DNA of 64,000 nucleotides from assembly GCA_963929435.1 (NCBI GenBank), contig CAWVIV010000006.1, forward strand, positions 2,535-66,534, given 5' to 3'. Positions within the stretch are counted from its first letter, which is position 1, and each line of letters begins with the position of its first letter. The stretch comes from an uncultured Bacilli bacterium (lineage in GTDB: Bacteria; Bacillota_I; Bacilli_A; RF39; UBA660). The notes under the pieces are model-generated. The model searched no databases, had not been told where the DNA came from, and saw only the letters and a list, made by a program, of their open reading frames with translations. Of this stretch, positions 38,839 to 64,000 are shown in pieces. The position numbers and the translations under genes were made by a program.

Positions 38839-41463
38839 TTAAGACTTATAATTAATTACGGCTTGGGCAGCAGCAAGTCTTGCAACAGGTACTCTAAATG
38901 GACTACAAGAAACATAATTAAGTCCAACTTTTTGACAGAAAGCTATACTCTTAGGATCTCCTCCATGCTCTCCACAAATACCTAATTTAATATCACTTCT
39001 TGTACTTCTACCAAGTTCTGCAGCCATTTTTACTAACTTACCAACACCAACAGTATCTAAGCTTGCGAAAGGATCATTTGTAAAGATTTTTTTATCATAG
39101 TAATCTTTTAAGAATTTAGAAGCATCATCTCTTGAAAATCCATAAGTCATTTGTGTTAAGTCATTAGTACCAAAACTAAAGAACTCTGCTTCTGTTGCAA
39201 TTTGGTCTGCTAAAAGAGCAGCACGAGGTATTTCTATCATTGTACCTACTTTATATGTTAGACTGCTATCACTATCTGCAAGAATATTATCAGCAGTAGT
39301 AGTTACTATATTCTTAACATATTTTAATTCATTAACATCACCTACTAAAGGTATCATAATCTCAGGTGTTACTTTAATACCCTCTTTTTCTACTTCTAAA
39401 GCAGCAGTTATAACGGCTTTTGTTTGCATGACAGCAATTTCAGGATAAGTAACAGCAAGACGGCATCCACGATGACCCATCATTGGATTAAATTCTTTTA
39501 GTGACTCTACTTTATTCTTTAAAGCAACAAAATCCATATCTAAGTCTTTGGCAAGAGCTTTAATCTCATCATCAGTATGAGGTAAGAACTCATGTAGTGG
39601 TGGATCTAAAAATCTAATAGTAACTTCATAACCATCCATTACTTTAAATAATGCTTTAAAATCATCTTTTTGATAAGGTAATATAGCATCAAGTGCTTCT
39701 TCACGTTTTTCTTTAGTTGGTGCAACTATCATCTTTCTAAAGTTAAATATTCTTTCACTATCAAAGAACATATGCTCTGTACGACAAAGTCCAATACCTT
39801 TAGCCCCGAAGTCTCTTGCAACTTTAGCATCCCTTGGATTATCAGCATTAGTTCTAACCTCTAGGTCTGCTACTTCATCAGCCCAGTTCATGAATGTTTC
39901 AAAGTTACCACTAATAGATGCAGGAACTGTCTTTATCTCTTCTCCATAAACATTACCAGTTGAACCATCTAAACTAAGGTAATCACCTTCTTTAAAGACT
40001 TTACCATCTTTAGTAGTTAAAGTTTTCTTATTAACATCAACTACGACATCAGAACAACCTGATACACAACAAGTACCCATACCACGAGCGACAACGGCAG
40101 CATGTGATGTCATTCCACCTCTAACAGTTAAAATACCACGAGCGATATTCATACCTTCAATATCTTCTGGAGATGTTTCTTCTCTTGCTAATATTATATC
40201 TTCTACACCATTTTCATGAGCTTTCATAACATCATCAGCACTAAAGTATAAATGTCCAGTTGCTGCTCCAGGAGAAGCTGCTAAACCTTTACCAATAACT
40301 TTTGCCTTACTTAAGGCATCTTTATCAAAAGCAGGATGAAGTAATTGTTCTAATTGTTTAGGTTCAACTCTCATTAATGCCTCTTCTTTAGTAATTTTAC
40401 CTTCATTAACAAGTTCTACCGCAATTCTAAGGGCAGCTTCTGCCGTTCTTTTTCCACTTCTAGTCTGAAGCATAAATAACTTACCATTTTCTATCGTAAA
40501 CTCCATATCTTGCATATCTTTATAATGGTCTTCTAGAGTTTTACATATCTTAACAAATTCCTCGTAACATTCAGGCATAACTTCTTTTAATGTCTCAATA
40601 GACTGTGGTGTTCTAATACCTGCAACTACATCTTCTCCTTGAGCATTTATTAAATACTCTCCATATAACTTAGCTTCCCCAGTAGCAGGATTTCTAGTGA
40701 AGGCAACACCTGTTCCACTATTTTCACCCATATTACCATAAACCATCTCTTGAACATTAACAGCAGTACCCCAGTCTCCTGGAATATCATTAAGACGTCT
40801 ATAAGTAATCGCCCTATCATTATTCCAACTTCTAAATACAGCTTTAACCGCTTCAATTAATTGTACTTTAGCATCTTGTGGGAACTCCTCCCCTGCATGT
40901 TTTTTATATTCATTCTTATATCTATCTACAACTTCAACTAAGTCCTCTGCCGTTAAATCAGTATCAAGTTCTACTTTCTTTTCTTTCTTAATATCTTCAA
41001 ATAAATATTCAAAAGAACTCTTTGGAAAGCCCATAACTACATCCGCAAACATTTGAATAAAACGACGATAACAGTCATAAGCAAATCTCTTGTTATCAGT
41101 AAGTTTTGCAAGTGTTTCTACAACTTCATCATTCATACCAAGATTAAGAATTGTATCCATCATTCCTGGCATAGAACTTCTCGCTCCACTTCTAACTGAT
41201 ACTAGTAATGGATTTTTATCATCCCCCATTTTCTTACCAGTTACCTTTTCAAGATTAGCTAGTTCTTTAAAGATTTCTTCTTTAATATCATCACTAATCT
41301 CTTCATTATCTTTATAGTATTTTAAGCAAGCTTCAGTTGTTACTGTAAATCCACGAGGTACAGGTAAACCAATTCTTGTCATCTCAGCAAGATTAGCACC
41401 TTTTCCTCCTAACAACTCCTTCATATCCTTATTGCCTTCACTAAAGGCATAAACATATTTCAT
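38839..41463 (-). CDS. ppdK: Pyruvate, phosphate dikinase
   Basis: GGKGANLAEM, LVSVRSGA, SMPGMMDTILNLG, RGGMTSHAAVVARG, GIGLCRTEHM, GTNDLTQ, GICGEHGG. Confidence 0.98.
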   Translation of the reverse strand: MKYVYAFSEGNKDMKELLGGKGANLAEMTRIGLPVPRGFTVTTEACLKYYKDNEEISDDIKEEIFKELANLEKVTGKKMGDDKNPLLVSVRSGARSSMPGMMDTILNLGMNDEVVETLAKLTDNKRFAYDCYRRFIQMFADVVMGFPKSSFEYLFEDIKKEKKVELDTDLTAEDLVEVVDRYKNEYKKHAGEEFPQDAKVQLIEAVKAVFRSWNNDRAITYRRLNDIPGDWGTAVNVQEMVYGNMGENSGTGVAFTRNPATGEAKLYGEYLINAQGEDVVAGIRTPQSIETLKEVMPECYEEFVKICKTLEDHYKDMQDMEFTIENGKLFMLQTRSGKRTAEAALRIAVELVNEGKITKEEALMRVEPKQLEQLLHPAFDKDALSKAKVIGKGLAASPGAATGHLYFSADDVMKAHENGVEDIILAREETSPEDIEGMNIARGILTVRGGMTSHAAVVARGMGTCCVSGCSDVVVDVNKKTLTTKDGKVFKEGDYLSLDGSTGNVYGEEIKTVPASISGNFETFMNWADEVADLEVRTNADNPRDAKVARDFGAKGIGLCRTEHMFFDSERIFNFRKMIVAPTKEKREEALDAILPYQKDDFKALFKVMDGYEVTIRFLDPPLHEFLPHTDDEIKALAKDLDMDFVALKNKVESLKEFNPMMGHRGCRLAVTYPEIAVMQTKAVITAALEVEKEGIKVTPEIMIPLVGDVNELKYVKNIVTTTADNILADSDSSLTYKVGTMIEIPRAALLADQIATEAEFFSFGTNDLTQMTYGFSRDDASKFLKDYYDKKIFTNDPFASLDTVGVGKLVKMAAELGRSTRSDIKLGICGEHGGDPKSIAFCQKVGLNYVSCSPFRVPVARLAAAQAVINYKS

Positions 41464-45706: not shown

Positions 45707-46102
45707 ATGTTTTTTATATGTATGTTAATGCCTGCTAGTATTTCTATTCTTATAGAAAAAAGAATAGACAAAACTAACAAGAGTACAAGTGATTTAATAT
45801 TAAAGTATTTACTTTATACTTTTCTAATTACAACGGTTATGAATACTTTTGTATATATCTTTAGTAGTGAAAAGATGTTTCATTACGCTGAATATACATT
45901 TAGTTATGACTTTTGTTTAAAATATATGTGGCTTAGCTTAGTAGTTGCTGTTATCTTACCATATATATTAAAAGTAATAAGTACTAATGTTGATATTAAA
46001 TTAGAGTCAAAAGAGAAAAAAGATACCAAGAAAGATAAAGCAGTAAAAAGTGTTAAAAAGAATAAAGAAGTTAAAAAAAGAAAAAATAATAAGAGCAATT
46101 AA
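45707..46102 (+). CDS. Small membrane protein with Lys-rich tail
   Basis: Three hydrophobic segments; ATG 45707 after GAAAGAAG; overlaps the next gene. Confidence 0.65.
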   Translation: MFFICMLMPASISILIEKRIDKTNKSTSDLILKYLLYTFLITTVMNTFVYIFSSEKMFHYAEYTFSYDFCLKYMWLSLVVAVILPYILKVISTNVDIKLESKEKKDTKKDKAVKSVKKNKEVKKRKNNKSN

Positions 46103-47618
46103 ATGGATATTAGCTTTTCTCTTAATCTTTTTAGCTCTCATTATTATCTTTAGTACGCACTGGTCTTTAATTAATTTTCAGTTTAATAATTTTGACCAAA
46201 TATTATTTACATTAACTAGTTCAGTAGCATCTGCTAGTAATGATTTAATAGAAGAATTTATTAAAGAAAATGTTTTAATACCTCTTATTATTACTATTGT
46301 AATCATAGTGATTGTTATAGTCTTTAAACATTTATTTAAACATCTAGAGGCATACATTACTATTAAAATTAGAAGTAAGTCTTTTAAACTAAATTTTTAT
46401 AATGTTATTAAATATATGCTTTTACTCAGCTTAGTAAGCTATTCCATTTATTATGCTTTAAGTAACCTATATATAATTGACTATATTAAGTATAGTTATA
46501 TAGAATCTAACTTCTTAGAAGTAAATTATGTAGAACCAGAAGAAGTTAAATTAGAATGGCCTGACGAAAAAAGAAACTTAATTTATATTTTTCTAGAATC
46601 AATGGAATCTACTTATGCTGATAAAGAAAACGGTGGGGCTTATGATATTAATTACATACCCGAATTAACAGAACTTGCTAAAGATAATATTAATTTTTCT
46701 TCTAATAATTTAGTTGGTGGTGCTCATATGGGATATAATGCCTCATGGACAATGGCTGCTATGGTAGCACATACTGCAGGTATTCCTTTAAAAACTATTT
46801 TTAATCAAGATGATGTAAGTACTTATGAAGCAGGTACTACTCTTCCAGGGGCATATTCTATAGGAGACATACTAAAAGATGCAGGATATAGGCAGTATAT
46901 TATGGTAGGATCTGATTTAACCTTTGGCGGAAGAAGAAATTATTTTAAAAATCACGGTGACTATACTATGTATGATTATTATACGGCAATAGATGATGGA
47001 ATAATTGATGAAGATTACTATGTATTTTGGGGTTATGAAGATGCCAAGTTATTTGACTATGCTAAAGAAGAATTAACAAAAATATCTAAAAGCGATGAAC
47101 CATTTAATTTCACAATGCTAACTGTTGATACTCATTTTGAAGATGGATATTTAGATGATTCTTGCAAAGATATATATGATAATCATTATTTAACATCTAT
47201 TGATTGTTCTAGTGAAAAATTAGATGATTTTGTTAATTGGATTAAAGAACAAGACTTTTATGAAAATACTACTGTTATACTAGTAGGAGACCACCTTAGT
47301 ATGAATACCTATTCTTTTGATAACATAGATCCAAGTTATCAAAGAGGCGTTTATAATGTTTTTATAAATTCAGCAGTTGATACTGATTGTAATAAGAATA
47401 GAAACTTTACAACCTTTGATTATTACCCTACTACCCTAGCAGCTTTAGGAGTTAAAATTGATGGTGAAAGACTAGGGTTAGGAACTAATTTATTTAGTTG
47501 TAAAGAAACATTATCAGAAGAATATGGTAATGATTATATTGATGAAAGACTTATGGAAAAATCTCTTTATTATGATGCCTGTATTGGAAAAAAATGTGAT
47601 ATTAAAAAGGATAAGTAA
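46050..47618 (+). CDS. LTA synthase/MdoB-like phosphoglycerol transferase (sulfatase superfamily)
   Basis: N-terminal TMs, IFLESME, catalytic Thr in SWTMAA, TVDTH, VGDH. Confidence 0.82.
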   Translation: MLKRIKKLKKEKIIRAIKWILAFLLIFLALIIIFSTHWSLINFQFNNFDQILFTLTSSVASASNDLIEEFIKENVLIPLIITIVIIVIVIVFKHLFKHLEAYITIKIRSKSFKLNFYNVIKYMLLLSLVSYSIYYALSNLYIIDYIKYSYIESNFLEVNYVEPEEVKLEWPDEKRNLIYIFLESMESTYADKENGGAYDINYIPELTELAKDNINFSSNNLVGGAHMGYNASWTMAAMVAHTAGIPLKTIFNQDDVSTYEAGTTLPGAYSIGDILKDAGYRQYIMVGSDLTFGGRRNYFKNHGDYTMYDYYTAIDDGIIDEDYYVFWGYEDAKLFDYAKEELTKISKSDEPFNFTMLTVDTHFEDGYLDDSCKDIYDNHYLTSIDCSSEKLDDFVNWIKEQDFYENTTVILVGDHLSMNTYSFDNIDPSYQRGVYNVFINSAVDTDCNKNRNFTTFDYYPTTLAALGVKIDGERLGLGTNLFSCKETLSEEYGNDYIDERLMEKSLYYDACIGKKCDIKKDK

Positions 47619-50495: not shown

Positions 50496-51359
50496 CTATA
50501 AATTAAAATTTTTATTTATCCAATTAAAAATTAAATTTGCAATTTCTTTTTCTTTATTTTTATAAGTATGACCTGTATTCTCAATTATTTTGTATTCAAA
50601 ATTATTACAGTTTAATGCTTTATCTTTTAATAAATCTAAATGTTGATAATAATCTTCTTCATTAGAGCCAGAGAAAGTGAGAATTGGGACATCTATTGTT
50701 TCAAATTGTTTCCAATGTTCTTTATTAGAAATAACTGGTAAATTATCAAGATTAGAATTTTCATTATACCAATTATAATAAGTAAGAGAACTCATATACA
50801 TATAATCTTCTATCATTTTATGAAGTAATTTTGTTGGTTCGTTATTATCTATATTTTTCTTTGCTTCCGATAATAATCCTTTATAATCAGGCTCCAATAA
50901 CAAATGGGAACCAATCATATCTGGGGCACTTGCAAGGATTATTCCTAAAATATTAGGATGTTTTTTATAATAATAGTAGATAACTTTATTACATCCATAA
51001 CTGTGTCCTAACAAAATGATTCTTTTATATCCTTTATCTTTTGCAGTTTGTATCGCTAAATCTATATCATAAATACAGTCTTCAAATATTTCATACATGC
51101 ACCCACATCTTTTAAATGAACCATCTTTCATGACTATATCATTTTCTATAGAGTGACCTCTGTTATGCTCATAAATAAAACCAATATTTTTTTCTGATAA
51201 TACTTTGCCCCATACGGTAGCAAAGTAGTTGTCTACAATTGTTCCACACATACCATGTATACAAATAACGCATATATCTTTTTCTTTACTTTCAAAATGT
51301 ACCATAGGTAACATTAATCCATCTACAGTATAAGCATTATTAATAAATTCAATATTCAT
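50496..51359 (-). CDS. Alpha/beta hydrolase (DUF1749-like)
   Basis: IHGMCG, nucleophile GHSYG, C-terminal TGH. Confidence 0.8.
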   Translation of the reverse strand: MNIEFINNAYTVDGLMLPMVHFESKEKDICVICIHGMCGTIVDNYFATVWGKVLSEKNIGFIYEHNRGHSIENDIVMKDGSFKRCGCMYEIFEDCIYDIDLAIQTAKDKGYKRIILLGHSYGCNKVIYYYYKKHPNILGIILASAPDMIGSHLLLEPDYKGLLSEAKKNIDNNEPTKLLHKMIEDYMYMSSLTYYNWYNENSNLDNLPVISNKEHWKQFETIDVPILTFSGSNEEDYYQHLDLLKDKALNCNNFEYKIIENTGHTYKNKEKEIANLIFNWINKNFNL

Positions 51360-51420
51360 AGTAGTCCCTCCTCATAGAAATAAAGCTAGATATTTATGTT
51401 TTTTTAGTAGTTTTTATAAC

Positions 51421-51465
51421 ATAACTCCAAAAAAATACTAAAATAATTGATTTTTTTGGAGTTAT
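51421..51465 (-). terminator. Perfect 16-bp inverted repeat just after the mutL stop
   Basis: ATAACTCCAAAAAAAT (51421-51436) / ATTTTTTTGGAGTTAT (51450-51465). Confidence 0.55.
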
Positions 51466-51467
51466 AG

Positions 51468-53262
51468 TTAATTCATCGCTCTTTTAAAGAGTCTTTCTAA
51501 GTCATAATTACTATATGTAATAATAGTTGGTCTACCATGAGGACAAGTAAAAGGATTGTCAGTTCGTCTTAAGTTATCTAAAAGGATTTTAGCAGTATCT
51601 AAGTCTAAATAATCATTGGCTTTTATACTCATTTTACAAGCCATAGTAGATGCTGTCTTATAGATGAATTTTTCTTTATCAAATTCACCTTTTTCTAGGG
51701 TGATAGCAATTATCTTTTCAATGGCTTCCCTCTCATATCCTTCAAAAAACCAAGTAGGATGACTTCTAACAATAAAAGTATTATCACCAAACTCTTCTAA
51801 AGCAATACCAATACTCTTTAGAATATCCATATGTTCTTTAATTCTAATAAACTCATCTTTAGGATATTCTAATCTAATAGGTACTAGTAAATCTATAATT
51901 TTATAATCATCTTTTAATAGAGCATTTAAGACTTTTTCATAGTTAATACGTTCTGCCGCTGCATGTTGGTCTATTATATACATACCACTTGAGTTTTCTG
52001 CGATTATATAAGTCTTATGAACAATACCTACAGGTATCATTTCTTTGATACGATAGTCATCTTTTTTCTCTTTTTCATCTTCAACTACTTCTTCAGTCTT
52101 AGTACCCGTTATCTTATTATCATTATCAAAGTCAAAAGATAATTCTTCTAGATTAGGAGATGTTTCTTTAATAGGTTCTTCTTCATCATCTAGTTCATAG
52201 TTAATAGTATTAACAGGAAGAGAGTCTTCTACTTCATAAATAGTATTTAAATCCCTAATATTAGCATGAGGTACTAGTAATACTCTCTTTTAGTTTAGAA
52301 CTAATTACTTTCGTAATTAACTCTTTTAGACTATCTAATTTAGAGAACTTTATATCCATCTTTTGCGGATGTATATTAATATCTATAAGGATGGGGTCGA
52401 CATCTATATTTAAAACTATCATAGGAAACTTATCTTTAGGTATATAAGTATGATAACAGTCTATTAGACATCTATTTAAATCTAAATTCTTAATAACTCT
52501 ACCATTTACTAAAGTAGTAATAACATTACGAGAAGTCTTGGCAATTTCTGGATAACCAATATAACCAGATATTACATAATCATCGTTTTCGCCACTTATC
52601 TCTATCATTTTTTTAGCAACATCTATGCCATAGACAGCATAGATTACTTTTAATAAATTACCATCACCACTTGTATTTAATAACTCTTTTTCATTATTAG
52701 TTAAAACAAATCTAATAGATGGATATGATAGAGCCATTTTATTAACATATTCGATTATTAAAGCAAGTTCTGTATAAAGATTCTTTAAATACTTTAATCT
52801 TACTGGAGTATTATAGAATAAATCTCTAACTTCAATAGTTGTACCCACACTTAAATCACTATTTTCTACACTCTCTATTACCCCGCCATTTAAAGAGATA
52901 CTTGTTCCTACGCCATCTTTACTAGTCTGCAGATAAACATGAGAAACTGAAGCGATAGATGGTAGGGCTTCTCCTCTAAAGCCTAATGTTTCGATATTAA
53001 ATAAATCATCTAAGTTTTTTAATTTACTAGTGGCATGACGTGAGAATGCAAGCATCGCATCTTCTTTATTCATGCCAATACCATTATCACTTACTACTAT
53101 TTTTTTAGTACCAGAATCTATTAAGTTAATCTTAATTTCCGTAGACTCAGCATCTATAGAGTTTTCTACTAATTCTTTAACAACATTTAAACATCTTTCT
53201 ACTACTTCTCCTGCAGCTATCTTATTAGCAAGTATTTCATCCATTACTTTAATAGTTGCCAT
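51468..53262 (-). pseudogene. mutL: DNA mismatch repair protein MutL, split by a +1 frameshift near 52285
   Basis: IAAGEVVER, ELVENSIDA, DNGIGM, RHATSK, GFRGEAL; C-terminal DQHAAAER, CK, CPHGRP. Removing one base gives 598 codons. Confidence 0.9.
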
Positions 53263-53720
53263 CATTCTACCTCACAACTTGCATCTTTTGTTAATCTTTC
53301 TATCCCTGCGATTGAATTAGAACATGCTTGGCTTTCATATCCTGAACATTTTAAACAAGCAGAATATTCTATATCCATATTAAAGCCTGTATTATTATTT
53401 CTTTTTACAATAGCATAACTTTCTAAATTACAAGTTCTATTAGAAACATTAGGATCTTCAAGATTATTTACATATCCTTCACAGATTAACTTAGATACAT
53501 CAACTACTAAAGATTCACCTTCTAAAGGAATATATCCTGTATGATCTATTAAATAGTTAGTAACTCCATCAGTAATATTTTTTTCATAATCCTCATAAAC
53601 TGCAGATTTTGTTCTATCTAAATACTGTGACACTCCCATATAAGCAAGAGTTACTAAAATACCAAGTATAATTATGACGGCAAGTAATTCTAGCATTGTA
53701 AATCCCTTTTTATTTATCAT
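53262..53720 (-). CDS. Type IV prepilin-like protein
   Basis: Class III signal peptide KKG|FTMLELLAVIIILGIL; C-terminal Cys pairs; GAGGAG RBS. Confidence 0.88.
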   Translation of the reverse strand: MINKKGFTMLELLAVIIILGILVTLAYMGVSQYLDRTKSAVYEDYEKNITDGVTNYLIDHTGYIPLEGESLVVDVSKLICEGYVNNLEDPNVSNRTCNLESYAIVKRNNNTGFNMDIEYSACLKCSGYESQACSNSIAGIERLTKDASCEVE

Positions 53721-55488
53721 TATTTTCATCCTCCTCATGCAAGACATTATAGAGATTTAATGCTACAGTATCTCCTACTATTTTACTTAAATCCTCTATA
53801 CTTGCTTCCCTCATTTTTTTCATAGAACCAAATTTCTTTAATAGTTCTTTACGTCTAACTTCTCCTATTCCTGGCACTAAATCTAGATAACTTGATAGTA
53901 GTCCTTTACTTTTAATATTACGATGATAAGTTATAGCAAAGCGATGAACTTCTTCTTGAATTTTTGATAGATAAAGGAATAGGTTACTATCACTTTTAAT
54001 ATCTAAGACTTTATAATTACTATCTATAACAGTATTAGTTCTATGATGAGAATCTTTCTTAAGACCTATTATTGGTATTGATAAATTTAAACTAGAAAGT
54101 ATCTCTTTACAGACATTTACTTGAGTTTCTCCTCCATCCATAACGATTAAATCTGGTAAGACTTCATTATCCATAATCGCTTTATAATATCTTCGATATA
54201 ATACTTCTCTCATCGCTCCTAAATCATCTTTAACATCAGTACTTATTTTATATTTACGATAATCATTCTTTAAAGGTTCAAAGTCACGAAAAACAACCAT
54301 AGCCCCTACATAGTATGTTCCAAATAAATGAGAGTTATCAAAGCTTTCCATACGAGATACACTATCTACATTAAGAAGAGTTTTTAACTCATTTAAAGCT
54401 TCCATCTTTTTATTATCATCTTTCTTAAGTGTTTCTAACTCTTCATTTAAGACTACTTTAGAGTTTTCTTCGGCAAGGTCAACTAGTTTCTTTAACTCTC
54501 CTCTTTTAGGAACATGGACTTTAACTTTTAAATATTCACTAAGTAATTCAGCATTTAAAGTATCTGGTATTAATATCTCATGGGCAAGAATATTTTTATC
54601 ATAGAATTTAATGATATACTCTTCCATATCATCAACGACATTATCTAGTGTCTGTAATGTTTCATGATGTCTACCAAAAAGTATTCCTTCTCTTATAAAG
54701 AAAACTGTTATGGATAAATAGTTATCTACTACTGTATAATTAAAGATATCAAAGTTATAATTTTTCTTTAAATCTATCTTTTGCTTAGTAAGTGTTATAT
54801 CTATATCGGTTAACATTTCTCTTAATTCTAAAGCTTTCTCATAATTTAAAGCATTACTTGCTTTTTCCATTTCTTTTGTAATTTTCTCTTTAATAAAACT
54901 ACTATTACCTTTAAGAAAGCTTGTTATCTCATCAGTCATAGATTTAATAGTATCTTTATCTATTTCTTTAATACAGTAACCTAAGCATTCATTTATATGA
55001 TAATATAAGCATTCTTTTTTAGGTAGTTTTTCACACTTTCTTAAGGGATATAAACGATTAATCATATTAACTGTCTTTCGGGCTGAGCCTACATTAGGAT
55101 AAGGTCCAAATAATTTATGGTCTTTTTTCTTTCTTTTAACATTTCTAACTACTCTAAGTCGAGGATACTTTTCATTAGTTAGTTCAATATAAGGATAACT
55201 CTTATCATCTTTAAGTAAGATATTATATTTAGGGTCATATTTTTTAATTAGGTTTATTTCAAGTATTAAACTCTCTAACTCACTATCAGTTACAATGTAT
55301 TCAAAGTCATCTATATCTTGAACTAACATTGCTGTCTTTCCTGTTACATTACCTCTAAAGTAACTACTAACCCTTTTCTTCAAATTCTTAGCTTTACCAA
55401 CATAGATAATATAACCATTCTTATCTTTCATCTGATAACTTCCAGGTAGTTCTGGAACTAATTTTAATTTTTCCTTAAAGTCTTTCAT
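53710..55488 (-). CDS. uvrC: Excinuclease ABC subunit C
   Basis: GIY-YIG (IIYVGKAKNLKKRV), YNILLKDDKSYP, ESFDNSH, DGG, EVHRFAI, HhH GIGEVR. Confidence 0.97.
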   Translation of the reverse strand: MKDFKEKLKLVPELPGSYQMKDKNGYIIYVGKAKNLKKRVSSYFRGNVTGKTAMLVQDIDDFEYIVTDSELESLILEINLIKKYDPKYNILLKDDKSYPYIELTNEKYPRLRVVRNVKRKKKDHKLFGPYPNVGSARKTVNMINRLYPLRKCEKLPKKECLYYHINECLGYCIKEIDKDTIKSMTDEITSFLKGNSSFIKEKITKEMEKASNALNYEKALELREMLTDIDITLTKQKIDLKKNYNFDIFNYTVVDNYLSITVFFIREGILFGRHHETLQTLDNVVDDMEEYIIKFYDKNILAHEILIPDTLNAELLSEYLKVKVHVPKRGELKKLVDLAEENSKVVLNEELETLKKDDNKKMEALNELKTLLNVDSVSRMESFDNSHLFGTYYVGAMVVFRDFEPLKNDYRKYKISTDVKDDLGAMREVLYRRYYKAIMDNEVLPDLIVMDGGETQVNVCKEILSSLNLSIPIIGLKKDSHHRTNTVIDSNYKVLDIKSDSNLFLYLSKIQEEVHRFAITYHRNIKSKGLLSSYLDLVPGIGEVRRKELLKKFGSMKKMREASIEDLSKIVGDTVALNLYNVLHEEDENNDK

Positions 55489-55507
55489 GACACATCACCT
55501 AACTAAA

Positions 55508-55536
55508 AAAATAAGTTATTTTACATAACTTATTTT
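55508..55536. terminator. AT-rich hairpin upstream of uvrC
   Basis: AAAATAAGTTAT-TTTAC-ATAACTTATTTT. Confidence 0.45.
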
Positions 55537-55562
55537 AGACTACATTCATTATTTTTACAAGT

Positions 55563-56000
55563 TTAAATCATATAATTATGAAATATTAAAGCACCATTTA
55601 AAGGATTCTTAAAGTAATCTTTTTTAAACCCATTTAATAGACAAACTTATGAATAATCAATTCCACAAAATGCACAAAATATTTTAAATCCTTTAATTCT
55701 AAAACTATAATCCTTCCAATACTTACAATCTCTACTAAGTAAATAAGCAAGATTTTCAGGATCATAATAATTATGTTTCTCTCGTATTATTTTATCAGGT
55801 TCTTCCATATTAACAATGTTTTCATCCTTTTCGTCAAAATAAACTTTCCATTTTTCTTAAAGATTTAAATCAACAATTTTACCTAAAGAATCTATAATAT
55901 TTTTAATATCTCCATCACTAAAATAACCATCTTCAAAAAGACCTAAAGGTCTAGTAACTCTTAAAGAAAGAGCGACACTGCAATATAATGCTCCACCCAT
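55563..56000 (-). pseudogene. Hypothetical gene interrupted by two in-frame TAA codons
   Basis: A 146-codon frame (MGGALYCSVAL...HNYMI) starts 7 nt after the preceding stop and contains two internal stops. Confidence 0.5.
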
Positions 56001-56007
56001 AATTAAC

Positions 56008-56274
56008 CTACATTAATCTTGCAATTTGAGCTTCATTTAAGCCAGTAGCTTGCATTATACTTTCTTTAGGTATACCTATTTCAAGAAGATTCTTAGCAAT
56101 AGATTTTTCTCTTTCTTTAGCACCTTGTTTAATGCCCTTTTTAATGCCCCTTTTCTCTCCTAACATTTCTTCTTCTTTAAGACTATTCATCATTTTTTCC
56201 ATCTCTTCCGCTTCATCATAAAACCCTACTGTATTAATATCAAGACTTAATCTCTTTGAAGCACAACCTTCCAT
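56008..56274 (-). CDS. Stand-alone Rpn C-terminal module (RpnS-like small protein)
   Basis: Own AGGAG RBS. Aligns with the last ~95 aa of 56291-57232 (GFYDEAEE, GIKKGIKQG, KSIAKNLL, IM.ATGL). Confidence 0.75.
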   Translation of the reverse strand: MEGCASKRLSLDINTVGFYDEAEEMEKMMNSLKEEEMLGEKRGIKKGIKQGAKEREKSIAKNLLEIGIPKESIMQATGLNEAQIARLM

Positions 56275-56290
56275 TAACTCAACATCTCCT

Positions 56291-57232
56291 TTACATCAAC
56301 ATTGTTATTTGATTCTTATTTAACCCTGTCGCTTTCATAATATCTTTTATTGGCATACCCATACTAAGAAGATTTTTAGCAATAGAATTTTTTTCATTAC
56401 TAACACCTTGTTTAATTCCTTGTTTAATTCCTTGTTTAAGACCTTGTTTAAGGCCTTGTTCTTTAGCAGTAATTTTTATACTATTTTCTATTCTTCTTCT
56501 TTCCTCTTCTTCATCATATAGTCCAATAGTATATGCATCATTAGTTAATCTTTTTAATTCTTTAGCAACTTCCATAAGTTCTTCGTCTCCTTCCGCTAAT
56601 TTGTCAATCTCATCAACTTTTGTTAAAGTTAATATCACTAGTTCTTTTTCTAATTTACTTAAATTTAATCCTCTATCATACTTTTCTCTTATTAATTTTA
56701 AATTAACATATATTTTACCCCATTTATCACTTTCTATTATTCCATATTTATCTCTTGATTTAAATTCTAATAGATTCTCCTTATTTAAGAAACAATAAAA
56801 GTTATTAATATTTATCTGTATTACTTTAGGCATACTAGCATAACTTTTCGCTTTTCTTATTAAATCATTTTTTATTTTACCTAAATAAGCATCATTTCTC
56901 TCAATTAAGCCATTCCATTTTCTATTATTAAACTCAAAGTTAAAAACATAGCCTTTTGTTTTAAATAAAACATCTGATACTTTACCTTTTTCTAAAACAT
57001 TATCTATTACATACTCAGTATTCATTTCTTTATAAGTATTTAATATTAACTCTTTAGATACACTTGTTAATTTAGATGTAGTATCTGCTCTATATTTAGG
57101 ACAGTTTCTCATAATAGCTTTATATATACAGTCATAAGTAGCAGGAACAACTTCTCCTTTTCTTCTTAACTCATTTACTATTTCTTCAAATCTTTTCTTT
57201 GTAATAGACAAGGAAATTCCTCCTTTCTGCAA
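56291..57232 (-). CDS. Rpn-family / PD-(D/E)XK nuclease-like 'transposase' protein
   Basis: YDCIYK near the N-terminus, SDVL...FNFEFNN nuclease core, VIQININNF, C-terminal KQG repeats and IAKNLL...ATGL. Confidence 0.8.
   Translation of the reverse strand: MQKGGISLSITKKRFEEIVNELRRKGEVVPATYDCIYKAIMRNCPKYRADTTSKLTSVSKELILNTYKEMNTEYVIDNVLEKGKVSDVLFKTKGYVFNFEFNNRKWNGLIERNDAYLGKIKNDLIRKAKSYASMPKVIQININNFYCFLNKENLLEFKSRDKYGIIESDKWGKIYVNLKLIREKYDRGLNLSKLEKELVILTLTKVDEIDKLAEGDEELMEVAKELKRLTNDAYTIGLYDEEEERRRIENSIKITAKEQGLKQGLKQGIKQGIKQGVSNEKNSIAKNLLSMGMPIKDIMKATGLNKNQITMLM
56405..56461 (-). repeat. 12-bp tandem repeat (~4.8 copies) encoding (L/I)KQG
   Basis: GAACAAGGC CTTAAACAAGGT CTTAAACAAGGA ATTAAACAAGGA ATTAAACAAGGT on the minus strand. 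Confidence 0.9.
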
Positions 57233-57519
57233 TACTTATAGCATAGCTTTAAAATGATTGCAAAAAGGTAATTTTTAAAATTCAAAGAAAATAGGCTCTC
57301 AATTTAATATTTTCTCTAGGAGAATTTTAAATATTCATTTCAAAAAAACTCTCAATTTTAAAAATCTATACTTTTTTAAAAAAATTAAATTTACCTCCTT
57401 TCCCCATCTTTTATGTATCGCCTCTTATATCTATAATGTATCATGATAGATAGATTGTGTCAATATATTTTTGATATATGTTTGAAACAATTAAAAGAAG
57501 AGAAAGTATTCCTTACGTT

Positions 57520-58361
57520 TCTTCTTTATTTGATTCTTCTTATAAACTAATATTTCTTGCTGATAGATGGTTTAATTCTACTACTATTTTGCAACATATT
57601 GACTCTTTAGGTCATACTTATTGTATTAGATTAAAAAGAAGGACATAAAGTTTGGAAATTTTTAGATGAAATAGAGCCTTACAAATATCACTCTAAATCT
57701 TTTAATGATATCCTACTTACTGATAACTCTTATAAAACTAATATTGTTATAAGTAAAACGGATGGTGTTAGTGAACCCTGGATTATTGTTACTAATGGTT
57801 CTACTAGAAGAGCCATTAAAGATTATGGTTATCGTTTTGGTTCTATTGAATCAGTATTTAAAAATCAAAAATCTAATGGCTTTTATATTGAATCTGTTGT
57901 TAAAGCAGACTTAGATTATTTTACTTCTATGTATACTCTTGTTTGTTTTTCTACTCTTTATTTAACTATATTAGGGGCAGACTATTCTAAAAATAATAGT
58001 TGTTATAAAACTGTTAAAATTACTACTCATAAATATTTTATAGAAAATGGTATAAGAGTAAAGAAAAGAGTAATGTCTTTATTTAATACAGGACTTACTC
58101 TATTTCATCTAGCTTTTAATTCCTCGAAATACATTAGGCTCCCCTTTTCCTTTACTCTCTATGATATTTAAAAAACTTAAATAACCAAAGTTCTTTTTGT
58201 CGTGGTTTAATTTATACTAAAAAGTGTAACTTATGATACCAAAAGTTACACTTTTTCTATTTTTATCATCATTGTTACCAACTCATACACTATTGGTCGT
58301 ACTTTTATATCTATTTTCCCTTTATTTTTCAACACTTTTACTAAAACTGTCCGTTACTCAG
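57520..58361 (+). mobile_element. 5'-truncated IS4-like DDE transposase remnant
   Basis: LADRWF, YCIRLK, EPWIIVTN, YGYRFGSIESVFKNQKSNGFYIE; stop at 58171. The right end near 58361 is a guess. Confidence 0.65.
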
Positions 58362-58377
58362 ATACATATAATCCCAC

Positions 58378-58403
58378 GAGGCAAATGAGGAGTCATTTGC
58401 CTC
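58378..58403. other. Perfect 11-bp stem, 4-nt loop hairpin/cruciform without U-tract
   Basis: GAGGCAAATGA-GGAG-TCATTTGCCTC, immediately 3' of the surface-protein gene. Confidence 0.85.
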
Positions 58404-60037
58404 ATTCTACTAGAAATACATAAATTTTCTACAGTCCCATCTCCAGACGTAAACCCGTTATCAGTGGTCACATTGATAACTGGACGGACGGCGCTGTTGT
58501 CATCTCACATTGTAGTTACGCAGAGACTCATACTCAGCCCATACATAAGCATACCATCACTCGAAAGAGGCCGGCGTCATACTCCAATAATACATTTCAG
58601 AATCCCCAGGATTTAAATAACTATCTGTTGTTACTCCAAGATTTTCTCCTCCTAAAACTAATTCATCTGCTGTTATTAATCCTGCTTTTAATCTATAACT
58701 TCCTCCATAACTTTCACTTGTACTGGACACTTCAAAGTTGGACTATTTTCTTTTGCATATCCTGTTACTAATTGGCTAATCTATCATAACTTGCAAAAAC
58801 ATTATAATTCATAGAAGGAAAACCATAGTCAGTGTCTTTTTTATATCCACTACTATCACTACAGAACCTTCCTCCTAATACCTTACTATCATAACTACTA
58901 CTTCCTAAGGTATTTTTATACCATGTATCTACTTCTTTCTTTATAAAACTATCTGTTCCATTATCATATGTATATCCTGTGTATTTTGAATCATTATACT
59001 CTAAATTATATGGACTTATTCCTACTACATAAGAATGTGCTAAATCACTATTATCTGGATTTGCACTTGTTCCATTATATATTAATCTTAAACTTCCATC
59101 TCCATTAACTCTTACTATCTTCCAGTACATCTTATCTCCTGCACTAGCTAAGCTTTACTCTAGTACGTTCACTACATCTACTATTACCTGCTTCAGGACA
59201 ACTAGATGCTCAACTTTGAGAAATATCTAGTCGTTATTACCTTGATAAACATAATAATCACTTGTCATACTCTCCAAACTGAACATTGTTATTATCTGAC
59301 ATTTCCTCTATAAGTAATAACTTGTTCCATCTTCATCTTCCATACTATATAACCCATTTGTTACATATTCTGGATTATTTTGTGGACCAGAACTCATATC
59401 TAAATAGTTTCCATTACTTGCATAATTAAACATATCTTCAGGTCCCTTCTTGTAGTTCATTATCTTCAAGTATTTGTTTTAATGCTAAAGACTTTTGTTC
59501 TCTATCATAACTTGTTACTACTATCTTACTCTTATATTCTTTTCCTTGAGCAGAGTTGTCTGCATCATTATCTAACCACATCCATAAAGTATATGTTACT
59601 TTATCACCCGGCTCTAATACTTCTTCACTCTTTATGTTAAATGTACCTGTTCCATACATATTTACATTTGATATTCCACTATCATACCCTTTATTATTCG
59701 TTAATTTCATTCTTATATAACTATTATCTAAAGTATTAGTATCCTCTTCTTCTAAAGATACATGATAATAAGCATTTATATTACCAGTATTAGTTATAGT
59801 AAAAGTATATGGTGTTAACTTTTGACCTTGTGCATCAGAGATAGGAGCTGCATTATCTAAATTTATATAATTACCATCAGTAAAATCTACTTTTAATATA
59901 CCTGCTGTTAAAGTAATAGCCTTATCTCCTTCTATAGTCATAGTAAGTAACGCATAACTCGCTCCTAATAATGCTACTACACTTACTACTATTGTTACTA
60001 TTACTAATACAATATATTTTTTTCTTGTTTTATTCAT
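58400..60037 (-). pseudogene. Secreted/surface protein (SipW-type-like N-terminus, C-terminal lectin-like YW..TP...VRPVIN domain), multiply frameshifted
   Basis: ORF pieces 59438-60037 and 58768-59130 plus further frames: GASYA|, YTFTITNTG, YWKIVRVNGDGSLRLIY, YWSMTP, AVRPVIN, GDGT. Confidence 0.7.
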
Positions 60038-60040
60038 AAC

Positions 60041-60409
60041 TTACTCCCCATCCTTAGTTTCATAATTATCACAGACCAAATGAGCTTTATATAAATATTC
60101 ATCTTCTTTAGTCTTTTCTACTTCTACATAACTTTTCGTAATATCACAACTATTACCATCAATGTCTTTCACATCATCTAAGTATTTTTCAAGTACTAAG
60201 GCACTTAATAAAACCCTAGTATCATCATTAACCTTCTTAGGTAAATAATTGCTATAAAAAGAAAAATACTTTTCACTAGCTTTAATCATTAATTTTTCTT
60301 TTTCATTATAATATTCTAAATCATTAGCATTATCCAATTTTATAATACCATTTATAATTAATAACACTAATATCAATGCAATAATAATAACAACTATTTT
60401 TTTAATCAT
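60041..60409 (-). CDS. Membrane-anchored hypothetical protein resembling the globular part of the pilin at 53262
   Basis: N-terminal TM; V.LS.LV...YL...D..G..C....SY.V......Y.A.L.C pattern; no G|F..E cleavage motif. Confidence 0.55.
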   Translation of the reverse strand: MIKKIVVIIIALILVLLIINGIIKLDNANDLEYYNEKEKLMIKASEKYFSFYSNYLPKKVNDDTRVLLSALVLEKYLDDVKDIDGNSCDITKSYVEVEKTKEDEYLYKAHLVCDNYETKDGE

Positions 60410-61014
60410 TTTCTCTTTCTTGATTTTCTTTTAGAAGGTACTATTAATTCTTTAGTATCATAATTTATTAAAATAATAGATATCATTGCCTCTATCATTA
60501 TAGTAACAAAATATGTTCTCCAAAAAGCATCTACCATAGTCATTCTACTAATAAATAACATGCTAATTAAATTATCTACTAACATGGCGAATATATAGGT
60601 TGCAAGTATTGCTAACTTATTACCATCTGTATTCATATACAAATAATAATAAATAGTCAAGTTAATCATTTGACTTGCAAGATAACCAAATATTTCTCCA
60701 GTTACAGGAACATAATCAACATTATGTTCACCTAAAAGACTTGCTGCTATCATAAATAGCAACATTAAACAAGCAGAATAACTAATACCATTCATTGTCT
60801 CCTTATATCCATATTTTTTAGTTATAATATTTGCAATAAAATATCTAAATGGGTATGCAAATATGGCCACAGTTAATGTTGCTTTCCCTATATTAAACTC
60901 AAATTTACCTAGAACCCAACCTAAAATAGCAACTGCTGTAAGTAAAAGAATATATATCCAACTAGGTACTTCTTCTTTTTTTATTATTGCTTTTCTAGCA
61001 CTCCCTTTTGTCAT
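60406..61014 (-). CDS. VUT/YhhQ-like (queuosine precursor) transporter family
   Basis: AIFAYPFRYFIANIITKKYG, GYLASQMIN, LVDNLI; about 6 TMs. Confidence 0.65.
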   Translation of the reverse strand: MTKGSARKAIIKKEEVPSWIYILLLTAVAILGWVLGKFEFNIGKATLTVAIFAYPFRYFIANIITKKYGYKETMNGISYSACLMLLFMIAASLLGEHNVDYVPVTGEIFGYLASQMINLTIYYYLYMNTDGNKLAILATYIFAMLVDNLISMLFISRMTMVDAFWRTYFVTIMIEAMISIILINYDTKELIVPSKRKSRKRK

Positions 61015-61084
61015 TTAAACTCCTCCTATTCTTATAAAATAACTATAGCACAAAAAAAAGAAAAGTAAAAGACCTTTTCTCTTC

Positions 61085-61544
61085 TTATTTACAAGTAAAT
61101 CCAGAATCTTCAGCTTCTTTTTTAGTATCTTCATAAGTTGCATTTTCATCTGTTATTCCATCTAAGTTATACTCTGCTAGAGCATCATCACTTGCTTTTT
61201 TCTAAATCAATTTCTAATGATACATTATAGATATGATTATCTGTATCATTATCAGTAGATAATTTAACTCCATCTTCATTAGATTCTTTAAATTGCGAAT
61301 CCAAAATAGACACAAACATATCCCAATTATCAATAATAGTATCATCTGTCGCTTCATTATCAATACTCATTTTAACATAACTAATCTTGTCATCTTTAAA
61401 AGTCATAGTTACTTCTTGACTCATTTTAAGGCCACTATCTTCTTCACTATTTGTACAAGTTAGAGTTTTTTCATTATTACCACAGCCTGTTATAAGTAGT
61501 ACTGACACTGCTAGAATACCAAATAATTTTACTCCTCTCACCAT
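61085..61544 (-). pseudogene. Lipoprotein split by a +1 frameshift in an A6 run
   Basis: Lipobox LLITGC, KTLTCT. Removing one T of 61196-61201 gives a 153-codon ORF ending EDSGFTCK. Confidence 0.75.
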
Positions 61545-61626
61545 TTTCACCTCCATCTACTTCTAGTATGAATTATATAAGAGAAAAAGGCAAGAAATAT
61601 TTTTAATAGTTATATTATTTTACATA

Positions 61627-62910
61627 TTAAGGCTTTAAAGCAGTTATTGGAATAATATAAATACCTGTTTCTTCATCTTTAATAATTGCACTATAATTAC
61701 CAACTATTATACACATAAATTTTGGTTTCTTACTTACATTATTATAAAATTTTAATAAACTTTCTTTAGCGGAATCTATACTTCTATAATTTAATTTTAT
61801 TTCAATCGCTGCATATTCTCCATCTTTGAATTCTAAAATAGCATCTACTTCATCACCACTTGCATTATCTCTAAAATGATATAAATGTCCATCTAAATAA
61901 TCCATATAAATTCTTAAATCTCTTTCAACTAATGCTTCAAACATTAAACCAAAGGTATTAAAATCATGCATTAGTTTATCTACTGATAAATCTAGTAGTG
62001 CACAACTTAATGATGGATCAACTAAATGCCTTTTGGCAGATTTTCCAATTCTTTTAGAAGATCTATAATTTATACTATAAGCTTCTTGATTAGCAGTTAG
62101 ATATAGAGCATCTAAAGCACTAATATAATCGGCTACTGTTTTTCTGCTTTCAATTAAATCATTACTATTTTCATTTTCTGCTATATCTTTTACAATAGTA
62201 TCATTACCAATAGGTGATGACTCATTTCTTGCAAGTGACTTTAAAATCATTCTCATTTTATTAGAATCTCTTTTATGATCTTTTCTTTCATGAATATCTT
62301 TATTTATAATAGTTTCAATATAATTACTTGGTATAATATCAATATCGCTAGAATCAATGTTAATGTTTTCTGGCCAACCTCCTCTTATTATTAGACTTGC
62401 TAGTTCATCAAGTTCATATTTTTTAACAGCTTTACCTACTTTTTTATTATTAAGCATATCTGTTAAACTAATATCTCCACTTGAATCACCTGATTCATAA
62501 AGACTCATAGGATACATTTTTAAAGTAGCAATTCTTCCGGCTCCAGAATGAAATACTTCTTCCTCCTTCTCTTCTTTAGTAAGAGTAGTAGAACCAGTTA
62601 GAATAAATTTTCCTTTATTGTGATCGCTATCACATTCATGTCTAACTGAATCCCATATACTAGGTACTAATTGCCATTCATCAATTAACTCTGGTCTAAG
62701 GTCTTCAAATATATATTTTGGATTAGCTTTTGCTAAGTCTCTCTTATCTTTTTCTGTCATATAAACAACACTATTAGCATGATTTAGTGAAGTCCAAGTC
62801 TTCCCAGACCCTCTTGGTCCTTCTATCGAAACTGCTCCAAAAATTTTTAAATACTTTGATAATTTGTCATCAATCAATCTTTTACTATAGTTTTCTTTTG
62901 TTAAGCTCAT
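61627..62910 (-). CDS. AAA_14/DUF4143 ATP-binding protein (second subfamily)
   Basis: GPRGSGKT, IDEWQ, FILTGS, HSGAGRI, RGGWP, KRHLVDPS, FEALV, EVDAI, IEIK. Confidence 0.9.
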   Translation of the reverse strand: MSLTKENYSKRLIDDKLSKYLKIFGAVSIEGPRGSGKTWTSLNHANSVVYMTEKDKRDLAKANPKYIFEDLRPELIDEWQLVPSIWDSVRHECDSDHNKGKFILTGSTTLTKEEKEEEVFHSGAGRIATLKMYPMSLYESGDSSGDISLTDMLNNKKVGKAVKKYELDELASLIIRGGWPENINIDSSDIDIIPSNYIETIINKDIHERKDHKRDSNKMRMILKSLARNESSPIGNDTIVKDIAENENSNDLIESRKTVADYISALDALYLTANQEAYSINYRSSKRIGKSAKRHLVDPSLSCALLDLSVDKLMHDFNTFGLMFEALVERDLRIYMDYLDGHLYHFRDNASGDEVDAILEFKDGEYAAIEIKLNYRSIDSAKESLLKFYNNVSKKPKFMCIIVGNYSAIIKDEETGIYIIPITALKP

Positions 62911-62934
62911 GTTTATCACCTTTCTTATATTGAT

Positions 62935-63082
62935 ATTATATAACACCATTGTCCACTTTTCAAGTATTTCATTACCCACTTTTCAGTTTTTTATTACCCA
63001 CTTTTCAAAAACCACTGTTATTATTGTGCAGTTTTCTACAATTTTGTTGTGCAGTTTTCTTGAACTAGACAGTGCAACTTTC
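62935..63082 (-). promoter_or_regulatory. Promoter (TTGAAA-17-TATAAT) with upstream phased direct repeats
   Basis: -10 at 62940-62935, -35 at 62963-62958. CCACTTTTCA at 62953, 62976 and 62998; TGCA(G/A)(T/C)TTTC at 63027, 63050 and 63073. Confidence 0.65.
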
Positions 63083-63159: not shown

Positions 63160-64000
63160 ATGAAGAAAGTATTAGTTATATTATTACTCTTTTTAGTACC
63201 CTTAAATGTTATTAGTAAAGAAGATACTTTTGACACGGCTAGAAGTAGTATTATAGTCGACTTAAACAGTGGTCGTGTTTTATATGAAAATAATGCTGAT
63301 GAAGAGAGATTAATCGCATCAATTACTAAGATAATGACTTGTATTATCGCTATAGAAGAAGGAGATTTAGATAAAGAGATTAAAGCGGGAGAAGAAATAC
63401 TTAAGATGTATGGGACTAGTATTTATTTAGAGTTAAATGAAAAGATGAAGTTAATTGATTTACTCTATGGCCTTATGCTTAGAAGTGGAAATGATGCATC
63501 AGTTGTAATTGCAAAAACCGTAGCAGGAAGTGAAGAAGACTTTGTTAAAATGATGAATAAAAAAGCTAAAGAGATTGGTATGACTAATACTACTTTTAGT
63601 AATCCTCATGGTCTTGATGAAGAGACTAAGAACTACTCTACGGCAAAGAGATATGGCAAAATTATCAAGATATGCTTATAAAAATAAGACTTATAGAAAA
63701 ATAATTGGTACTGAAGAATACCATGTAAAGACTCTTAATAAGAGTTATCTTTGGTATAATAGAATGAAACTATTAGGAGATTATAAATACTGTACTGGTG
63801 GTAAAAATGGTTATACTCCTAGTGCTGGTAAGACTCTTGTTACTATTAATAAAAAGAATGATTTAAACATAACTATTGTTACTTTAGATGATAATGATGA
63901 GTATAATAATCATGAAAGATTAGCAGAATATGCTTTTGATAATTATAGTAACTATAATATTGTTGATAAAAATGATTTTGACCTAGTTATAGATGATAAT
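63160..64000 (+). pseudogene. D-alanyl-D-alanine carboxypeptidase (peptidase S11), +1 frameshift near 63645, runs off window
   Basis: SxxK (ASITK), SGN, NPHGL. Removing one A in GCAAAGAGAT restores STARDMAKL...GGKNGYT. Confidence 0.85.

Follow-up and report, generated by a model that had tools for sequence, protein, structure and literature searches.

The window, i.e. the whole 64-kb stretch of DNA analysed here (C6:2535-66534), belongs to a genome of 1.5 Mb in 23 contigs, with 27% GC and a marker-gene completeness of 87.6%, the relatives of which are Candidatus Onthousia-like gut Bacilli MAGs. The locus under study carries a gene of a target family of diversity-generating retroelements (DGRs), with a variable repeat (VR) homologous to the template repeats (TRs) of the genus close to its 3' end and a hairpin behind it. 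Its features are as follows, with the supporting comparison in brackets.

58410..60037, minus strand: pseudogene of the DGR target family with a DUF6273-like C-terminal domain (tblastn with an intact paralog and orthologs)
59438-60037, minus strand: N-terminal ORF of 199 aa, still open, the remainder of the gene lying in at least five frames
58494..58568, minus strand: part of the VR in which TR adenines are replaced, 15 AAY codons (codon-by-codon comparison with the TRs)
58480..58576, minus strand: VR (fit to the G004-type TR)
58557..58559, minus strand: in-frame TGA within the VR (translation, alignment)
58506..58506, minus strand: +1 insertion within the VR, by which the conserved AVRPVINV tail is thrown out of frame (ortholog alignment)
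58480..58492, minus strand: GC box GCCGTCCGTCCAG, the 3' end of the VR and an IMH-like anchor, at which TR/VR homology stops (comparison of TR ends)
58411..58479, minus strand: conserved non-variable 3' coding tail (PVINVTTDNGFTSGDGT...) from the VR to the hairpin, with a 5-nt deletion at ~58415
58378..58403, no strand assigned: hairpin/cruciform GAGGCAAATGA-CTCC-TCATTTGCCTC, conserved target-site element of the DGR family

The product of this gene is predicted from its sequence to be a secreted or surface protein. A reading made earlier from the sequence only had pointed to a GC jump at 58441-58580, and our count reproduces it exactly: G+C is 69/140 (49.3%) here, against 30.0% in the remainder of the gene (58600-60037) and 26.8% in the 64 kb overall. 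A scan of all 64 kb shows that 140-nt segments with at least 45% GC form one single cluster, at 58373-58622, and the VR itself (58480-58576) has a GC content of 52.6%. The peak can be traced to the non-adenine positions of the TR, which are GC-rich, together with the exchange of many TR adenines for random bases, in a genome of 27% GC. The sequence-only reading had also described a C-terminal motif typical of C-type-lectin-fold variable domains. Both halves of the motif are found on the minus strand, YYWSMTPASFE* in the frame of 58557-58742 and AVRPVINVTTDNGFTSGDGT in the frame of 58358-58504, but they do not stand in one continuous frame, with the TGA at 58557-58559 and the +1 insertion at ~58506 lying between them.

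The gene as a whole (58410-60037) is split over at least six frames, and tblastn with the intact paralog and the orthologs returns matching pieces in three of them. Alignment with the intact ortholog on G008:C7 reveals 11 frame-breaking indels over 58366-59444 (~1.1 kb), the majority of them outside homopolymers, while among the flanking genes uvrC has none and mutL has one; in the coding regions outside uvrC and the target gene the indels are multiples of three or a single event. Judged by the assembly and the ortholog comparison, the target gene of the window is a heavily frameshifted pseudogene. Within it, the stretch 59150-59450 shows eight indels in 300 nt while being otherwise ~4-7% diverged from the G008 ortholog, a ratio of indels to substitutions unusually high for neutral decay. 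Just past the hairpin, at 57480-58170, lies a fragmented transposase-like gene with an 8-bp deletion at ~57558, which is ~99% identical to G008 where the neighbouring genes are 85-90% identical. Frames are also broken elsewhere in the window. The mutL gene (51468-53265, minus strand) is divided by the insertion of one base at ~52285, outside any homopolymer, and now consists of two ORFs, and its G008 ortholog is one frame of 600 aa; a D-Ala-D-Ala carboxypeptidase-like (dacA-like) gene at 63160-64000 on the plus strand changes frame near 63640 (ORFs 63160-63681 and 63608-64000). If the mutL insertion is real, mismatch repair would be absent in the organism, which could explain the many frameshifted genes.

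As the sequence-only reading had stated, neither a reverse transcriptase (RT) nor a TR is present in the 64 kb; both exist elsewhere in the same genome. On contig C8 they form a cassette in the order target, hairpin, TR, ORF of 111 aa, Avd-like gene and RT:

C8, 39086-40786: target, intact, 567 aa
C8, 40793-40823: hairpin, the same element as in the window
C8, ~40912-41015: template repeat TR1, a run of AAY codons
C8, 41243-41575: ORF of 111 aa with a Cys-rich C-terminus, between TR/spacer and avd
C8:41902-43005: RT of 367 aa (RVT_1, E=7e-22; motif IGNVTSQ), directly 3' of the TR and the Avd-like gene

The Avd-like protein has 119 aa and matches PF22296 bAvd (3.3e-7) and NF033474 DivGenRetAVD (3.5e-6), both below the curated cut-offs. 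The 111-aa ORF has no match in Pfam or NCBIfam, is present in every cassette of the genus (orthologs L025, L026 and L028-L030, with 72-94% identity), and is a candidate for a new accessory gene of DGRs. The VR of the C8 target differs from TR1 at 22 of 38 adenines and at none of 58 other positions. A second template, TR2, lies on C16 together with the conserved ~250-nt spacer RNA region (C16:25247-25580) behind a heavily frameshifted copy of the target (locus C16:23463-25580); avd and RT are absent there, with obg directly next. Both ends of TR2 resemble TR1 and its middle resembles the G004 type. The TR/spacer region belongs to no Rfam family.

These templates were recovered by gapped alignment. 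A genome-wide TR scan that tolerated adenine changes but no gaps returned nothing, owing to a 3-nt indel in the TR/VR pair of C8 and to the indels in the window VR, and a blastn-short self-comparison of the C8 region did not detect the TR. Other RTs are present as well. C13 carries a second DGR (45741-47418 and 51356-52702) with an RT of 355 aa (motif IGNYTSQ) and an Avd-like ORF of 140 aa; a TR-like repeat occupies 47300-47418, and near the contig end related repeats form an array with a period of ~330 nt, a 1.9-kb IS lying in between. It is ruled out as the template source for the window, because its TR is unrelated, it has its own repeat array and shows no similarity to the window VR. On C19 there is an RT of 436 aa that appears to be of the group II intron type.

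The genome has seven paralogous C-termini of this kind, and six paralogs match the 3' end of the window gene; the flanks of these C-termini are nearly identical (TATTGGAGTATG... and ...GTCCAGTTATCAATGTG), and the ~100 nt in the middle are hypervariable. The sequence-only reading had suggested looking for a template next to an RT. An RT with an Avd-like gene and a TR is indeed found on C8, but no resident TR fits the window VR by adenine changes only, the non-adenine mismatches being 18/57 for TR1 and 9/59 for TR2. A fitting template is instead found in a sister species: against the TR on G004:C120 (L034) the window VR has 1/61 non-adenine and 14/34 adenine mismatches with three gap columns (Fisher p=8e-7 for the adenine bias), and against the TR of Ca. 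Onthousia excrementipullorum 2/61 non-adenine mismatches, both of these TRs adjoining acc-avd-RT. The GC box tells the same, as GCCGTCCGTCCAG is identical in 13/13 positions to the TR ends of G004, G006 and G008 and differs in 5/13 from the end of TR1 (GGGTTGCGGCCAG) and in 4/13 from that of TR2 (GGTGTGCGGCCAG). A G004-type TR ends in GCCGTCCGTCCAGATTCC, its end being marked by the junction GCCGTCCGTCCAGATTCCTAC. The assembly contains only two TR ends, and a G004-type junction is not found in it. Over the whole assembly, only the C8 VR matches TR1 and none matches TR2, while the C16 and C20 VRs fit the G004-type TR with 2/60 and 3/61 non-adenine mismatches, respectively. The breaks in the window VR are a +1 at ~58506 and a +1/-1 pair which produces the TGA, the 5-nt deletion lying before the stop. 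The TGA is not obtainable by adenine mutagenesis of AAY codons and requires either the indel pair or non-adenine changes.

The sister species provide a view of the same locus in an intact state. At least 15 genomes in the genus have kept the cassette of target, hairpin, TR/spacer, ORF, avd and RT. Most of the VRs adjoining the TR differ from it by 0-1 non-adenine and 16-23 adenine mismatches, and the C8 cassette shares synteny with its counterparts in G006 and G008. The synteny of the window with G008:C7 covers 51400-62984 (88.7% over 11.7 kb), and 56847-60222 aligns to G006:C15 at 87%. Both orthologs of the pseudogene are single open frames of 537 aa followed by the hairpin. Divergence between window and G008 peaks within the VR, the adjoining sequence being 95-100% identical. 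The VR of the G008 ortholog has 0/63 non-adenine and 24/33 adenine mismatches to the G008 TR, which lies on a different contig, and the VR of the G006 ortholog has 2/61 and 16/35, respectively, to the G006 TR. This fit to resident TRs shows that in the sister species the locus truly serves a DGR as remote target; adenine-specific TR-to-VR transfer and the use of remote targets are shown for this DGR family. The sequence-only reading had let its proposal depend on a template or RT in the genome or its relatives and on adenine-biased variation among paralogs. An RT, an Avd-like gene and a TR are on C8, templates differing by adenines only are in the relatives, and the variation among paralogs and orthologs is adenine-specific, as it is for the window VR.

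The hairpin agrees with the earlier description of an 11-bp stem with a 4-nt loop and no U-tract. Its arms, 58378-58388 and 58393-58403, are complementary in 11/11 positions, and the DNA fold has -12.2 kcal/mol (z = -6.4), with 0/200 shuffles as stable. At 58378-58403 no T-tract is found and no terminator is called. An intrinsic terminator is rejected on this ground and by the position of the cassette TR, which lies past the hairpin and must be transcribed. In the genus, the element is found 84-88 nt past CCAG behind every cassette VR, at a fixed distance past the stop codon, with compensatory changes at the stem base (TGAGG/CCTCG, TGGGG/CCCCA, CGGGG/CCCCG, TCTTG/CAAGG). In four sister genomes, VRs with at most two non-adenine mismatches to a resident TR make up 6/7 of the hairpin-bearing and 1/11 of the hairpin-less ones (p=0.0025). 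The exceptions are one hairpin-less paralog that fits the TR at 1/61 and one hairpin-bearing VR without the GC box that does not fit, so that on present evidence the hairpin is neither strictly necessary nor sufficient. From these comparisons we infer that targeting would need a GC box identical to the TR end and a hairpin ~85 nt downstream, which agrees with the role found experimentally for the hairpin/cruciform and IMH of BPP-1 (PMC3240598).

A large protein set contains 2051 relatives of the target family, and Pfam has no domain for it. The C-terminal 115 aa constitute a domain that recurs in 543 clusters (at 50% identity), and in other proteins this domain comes after N-termini of the camelysin/TasA type or the N-methyl pilin type. 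DUF6273, a domain described as C-lectin-like that bears the VR in phage DGR targets (PMC10743442, PMC11792537), gives weak matches in 29 of 65 family members, the best at 3.5e-6, which are below Pfam's threshold for DUF6273. AF2 models have a pLDDT of 38.6 for the last 269 aa and 69.5 for the 115-aa domain. Foldseek of the 115-aa model against PDB and BFVD gives no significant match; the best, non-significant one in PDB is 9qa6 (E=1.1, TMq 0.52), the Thomasclavelia ramosa IgA peptidase with a DUF6273 N-terminal domain (PMC12402451). The family profile against PDB sequences gives insignificant N-terminal matches only, to archaeal pilin-like proteins (E ~0.2). For the earlier assignment to the C-type lectins there are thus a distant kinship to DUF6273, a model of moderate confidence and no significant fold match, and we regard a C-lectin fold of the VR-bearing domain as no more than plausible.

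Most probably, the segment comprises the VR and the target-site hairpin of a gene that a chromosomal DGR formerly used as a remote target, now a frozen fossil. Retrohoming would overwrite the three indels of the VR, yet they persist, which indicates that the VR is frozen; neither resident TR fits the VR and the fitting type is found only in a sister species, which makes it a former rather than a current target. The earlier proposal of a remote target therefore stands as far as the VR, the hairpin and the remoteness from the RT are concerned, but not as a current target, the gene being a pseudogene without a fitting resident TR. The anatomy of the locus, its adenine specificity and synteny, its decay to a pseudogene and its misfit with both resident TRs come directly from the comparisons above; that the GC box and the hairpin act as described and that retrohoming has ended, we infer from the sequences. 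In the course proposed here, the cassette RNA, with the TR and the ~250-nt spacer, would give rise to adenine-mutagenised cDNA. In genes for secreted proteins whose C-terminal domain is DUF6273-like, this cDNA would take the place of the ~95-nt VR at the 3' end. The last template to write the window VR would have been a TR of the kind that the sister species G004 carries today. The resident TRs would then have changed, TR1 in the intact C8 cassette and TR2 as an orphan on C16, so losing the GC box match to the window VR, and the window gene would have decayed by many indels, three of them within the VR.

Several other explanations are to be weighed against this one. In our estimate it is unlikely that the window VR continues to be targeted from afar, by way of a third TR, of the G004 type, or of a whole cassette in an unassembled part of the genome. 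At the completeness given above a further cassette with such a TR could be unassembled, and DGR cassettes in the sister MAGs are often on short contigs (e.g. the 3-kb G004:C120); moreover, the window VR has kept its GC box and hairpin, both intact, and the VRs of C16 and C20 likewise fit the G004 type. Against this, the stop and the three indels remain in a VR that retrohoming would overwrite, a dead gene leaves no selection to keep diversification, the main cassette of the genus, in syntenic position, also occurs in this genome, where it bears TR1 rather than the G004 type, and the C16 VR beside TR2 shows that TR2 drifted after the last homing. An improbable explanation is that the frameshifts are artefacts of assembly or polishing in a multi-copy family, the gene being intact and an ordinary paralogous DGR target. 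The single-base indels which also split mutL and the dacA-like gene of the window may speak for some assembly indel error, or else for a mutator background. Neither accounts for an indel density 50-100 times higher in the target gene (11 per 1.1 kb) than in flanking coding sequence (~1 per 10 kb), with most indels outside homopolymers. The frame is intact in four paralogs of the family in the same assembly, which argues against an artefact specific to the family, and even with an intact gene the VR would mismatch both resident TRs.

It is highly improbable that the variable block owes its origin to ordinary diversifying selection or to recombination between paralogs, with the hairpin as a transcription terminator. 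In favour of such an origin, the gene does belong to a large paralogous family of surface proteins. The idea is however already refuted by the adenine specificity, both in the window VR (p=8e-7) and in the orthologous VR of G008 with no mismatch at its 63 non-adenine positions, and the hairpin has neither a T-tract nor a terminator call and stands before a cassette TR that must be transcribed.

A more general reading, which we put forward only tentatively and consider unlikely at present, is that template turnover strands DGR targets and that orphan copies may still matter. The genome would then contain a layered record, in which the VRs of the window (C6), C16 and C20 come from an older G004-type TR and one VR comes from TR1. 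If the single RT of C8 and its Avd-like protein can use the orphan TR2 in trans, one enzyme would serve two templates. Remote targets could in that case be retired in whole sets whenever a template is switched or lost, and the fossil VRs left over would date past states of the TR. Taken alone, the feature in the window is a dead copy, ordinary for a DGR-bearing genome. Its setting nevertheless reveals, in little-studied, uncultured gut Bacilli of reduced genome, a chromosomal DGR that has remote targets and a target family of more than 2000 metagenomic members for which there is no Pfam model. The comparison within the genus serves as natural evidence that a matching GC box and a downstream hairpin accompany current targeting. 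The case also shows how the turnover of TR sequences leaves fossil VRs which still record the earlier template. For annotation it is a warning that a VR-like GC peak with a hairpin does not prove present diversification.

Remote targets, multiple targets and hairpins at target sites are already known features of DGRs (PMC5758913, PMC3240598). One close likeness is to the TvpA DGR of Treponema denticola (summarised by Wu et al. 2018, PMC5758913), which is also chromosomal and non-phage, also uses one RT and TR for adjacent and remote targets, and also has paralogous secreted proteins with a C-terminal VR as targets. The target domain, however, is DUF6273-like here and of the FGE-sulfatase/TvpA type there; an extra ORF of 111 aa lies between TR and avd here, and the window copy is a pseudogene without a match to a resident TR. 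With the DGR of Bordetella phage BPP-1 (mtd; Guo et al. 2011, PMC3240598) our system shares the adenine-specific transfer from TR to VR, the GC-rich element at the 3' limit of VR/TR homology, and the downstream inverted repeat with a 4-nt loop, conserved in structure and variable in stem sequence. That study reports hairpins at a distance of 4-34 bp from the VR, with GC-rich stems of 7-10 bp and a loop that reads GRNA on the sense strand, whereas those described here have stems of 10-13 bp with ~45% GC and a CTCC loop (variants CTCT and CACC), and lie ~76-88 nt beyond TR/VR homology, after the conserved coding tail and the stop codon. The DUF6273 targets of Faecalibacterium prophages and the 'tentaclins' likewise carry the VR in the C-terminal part of a DUF6273-type domain, which is reported as resembling the C-type lectin fold (PMC11792537, PMC10743442); those proteins are phage receptor-binding proteins, while the targets here are chromosomal and have N-termini of the camelysin/TasA or pilin type. 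What distinguishes the present system is its target domain not modelled in Pfam, the 111-aa ORF, the orphan TR and the fossil VRs of an earlier TR.
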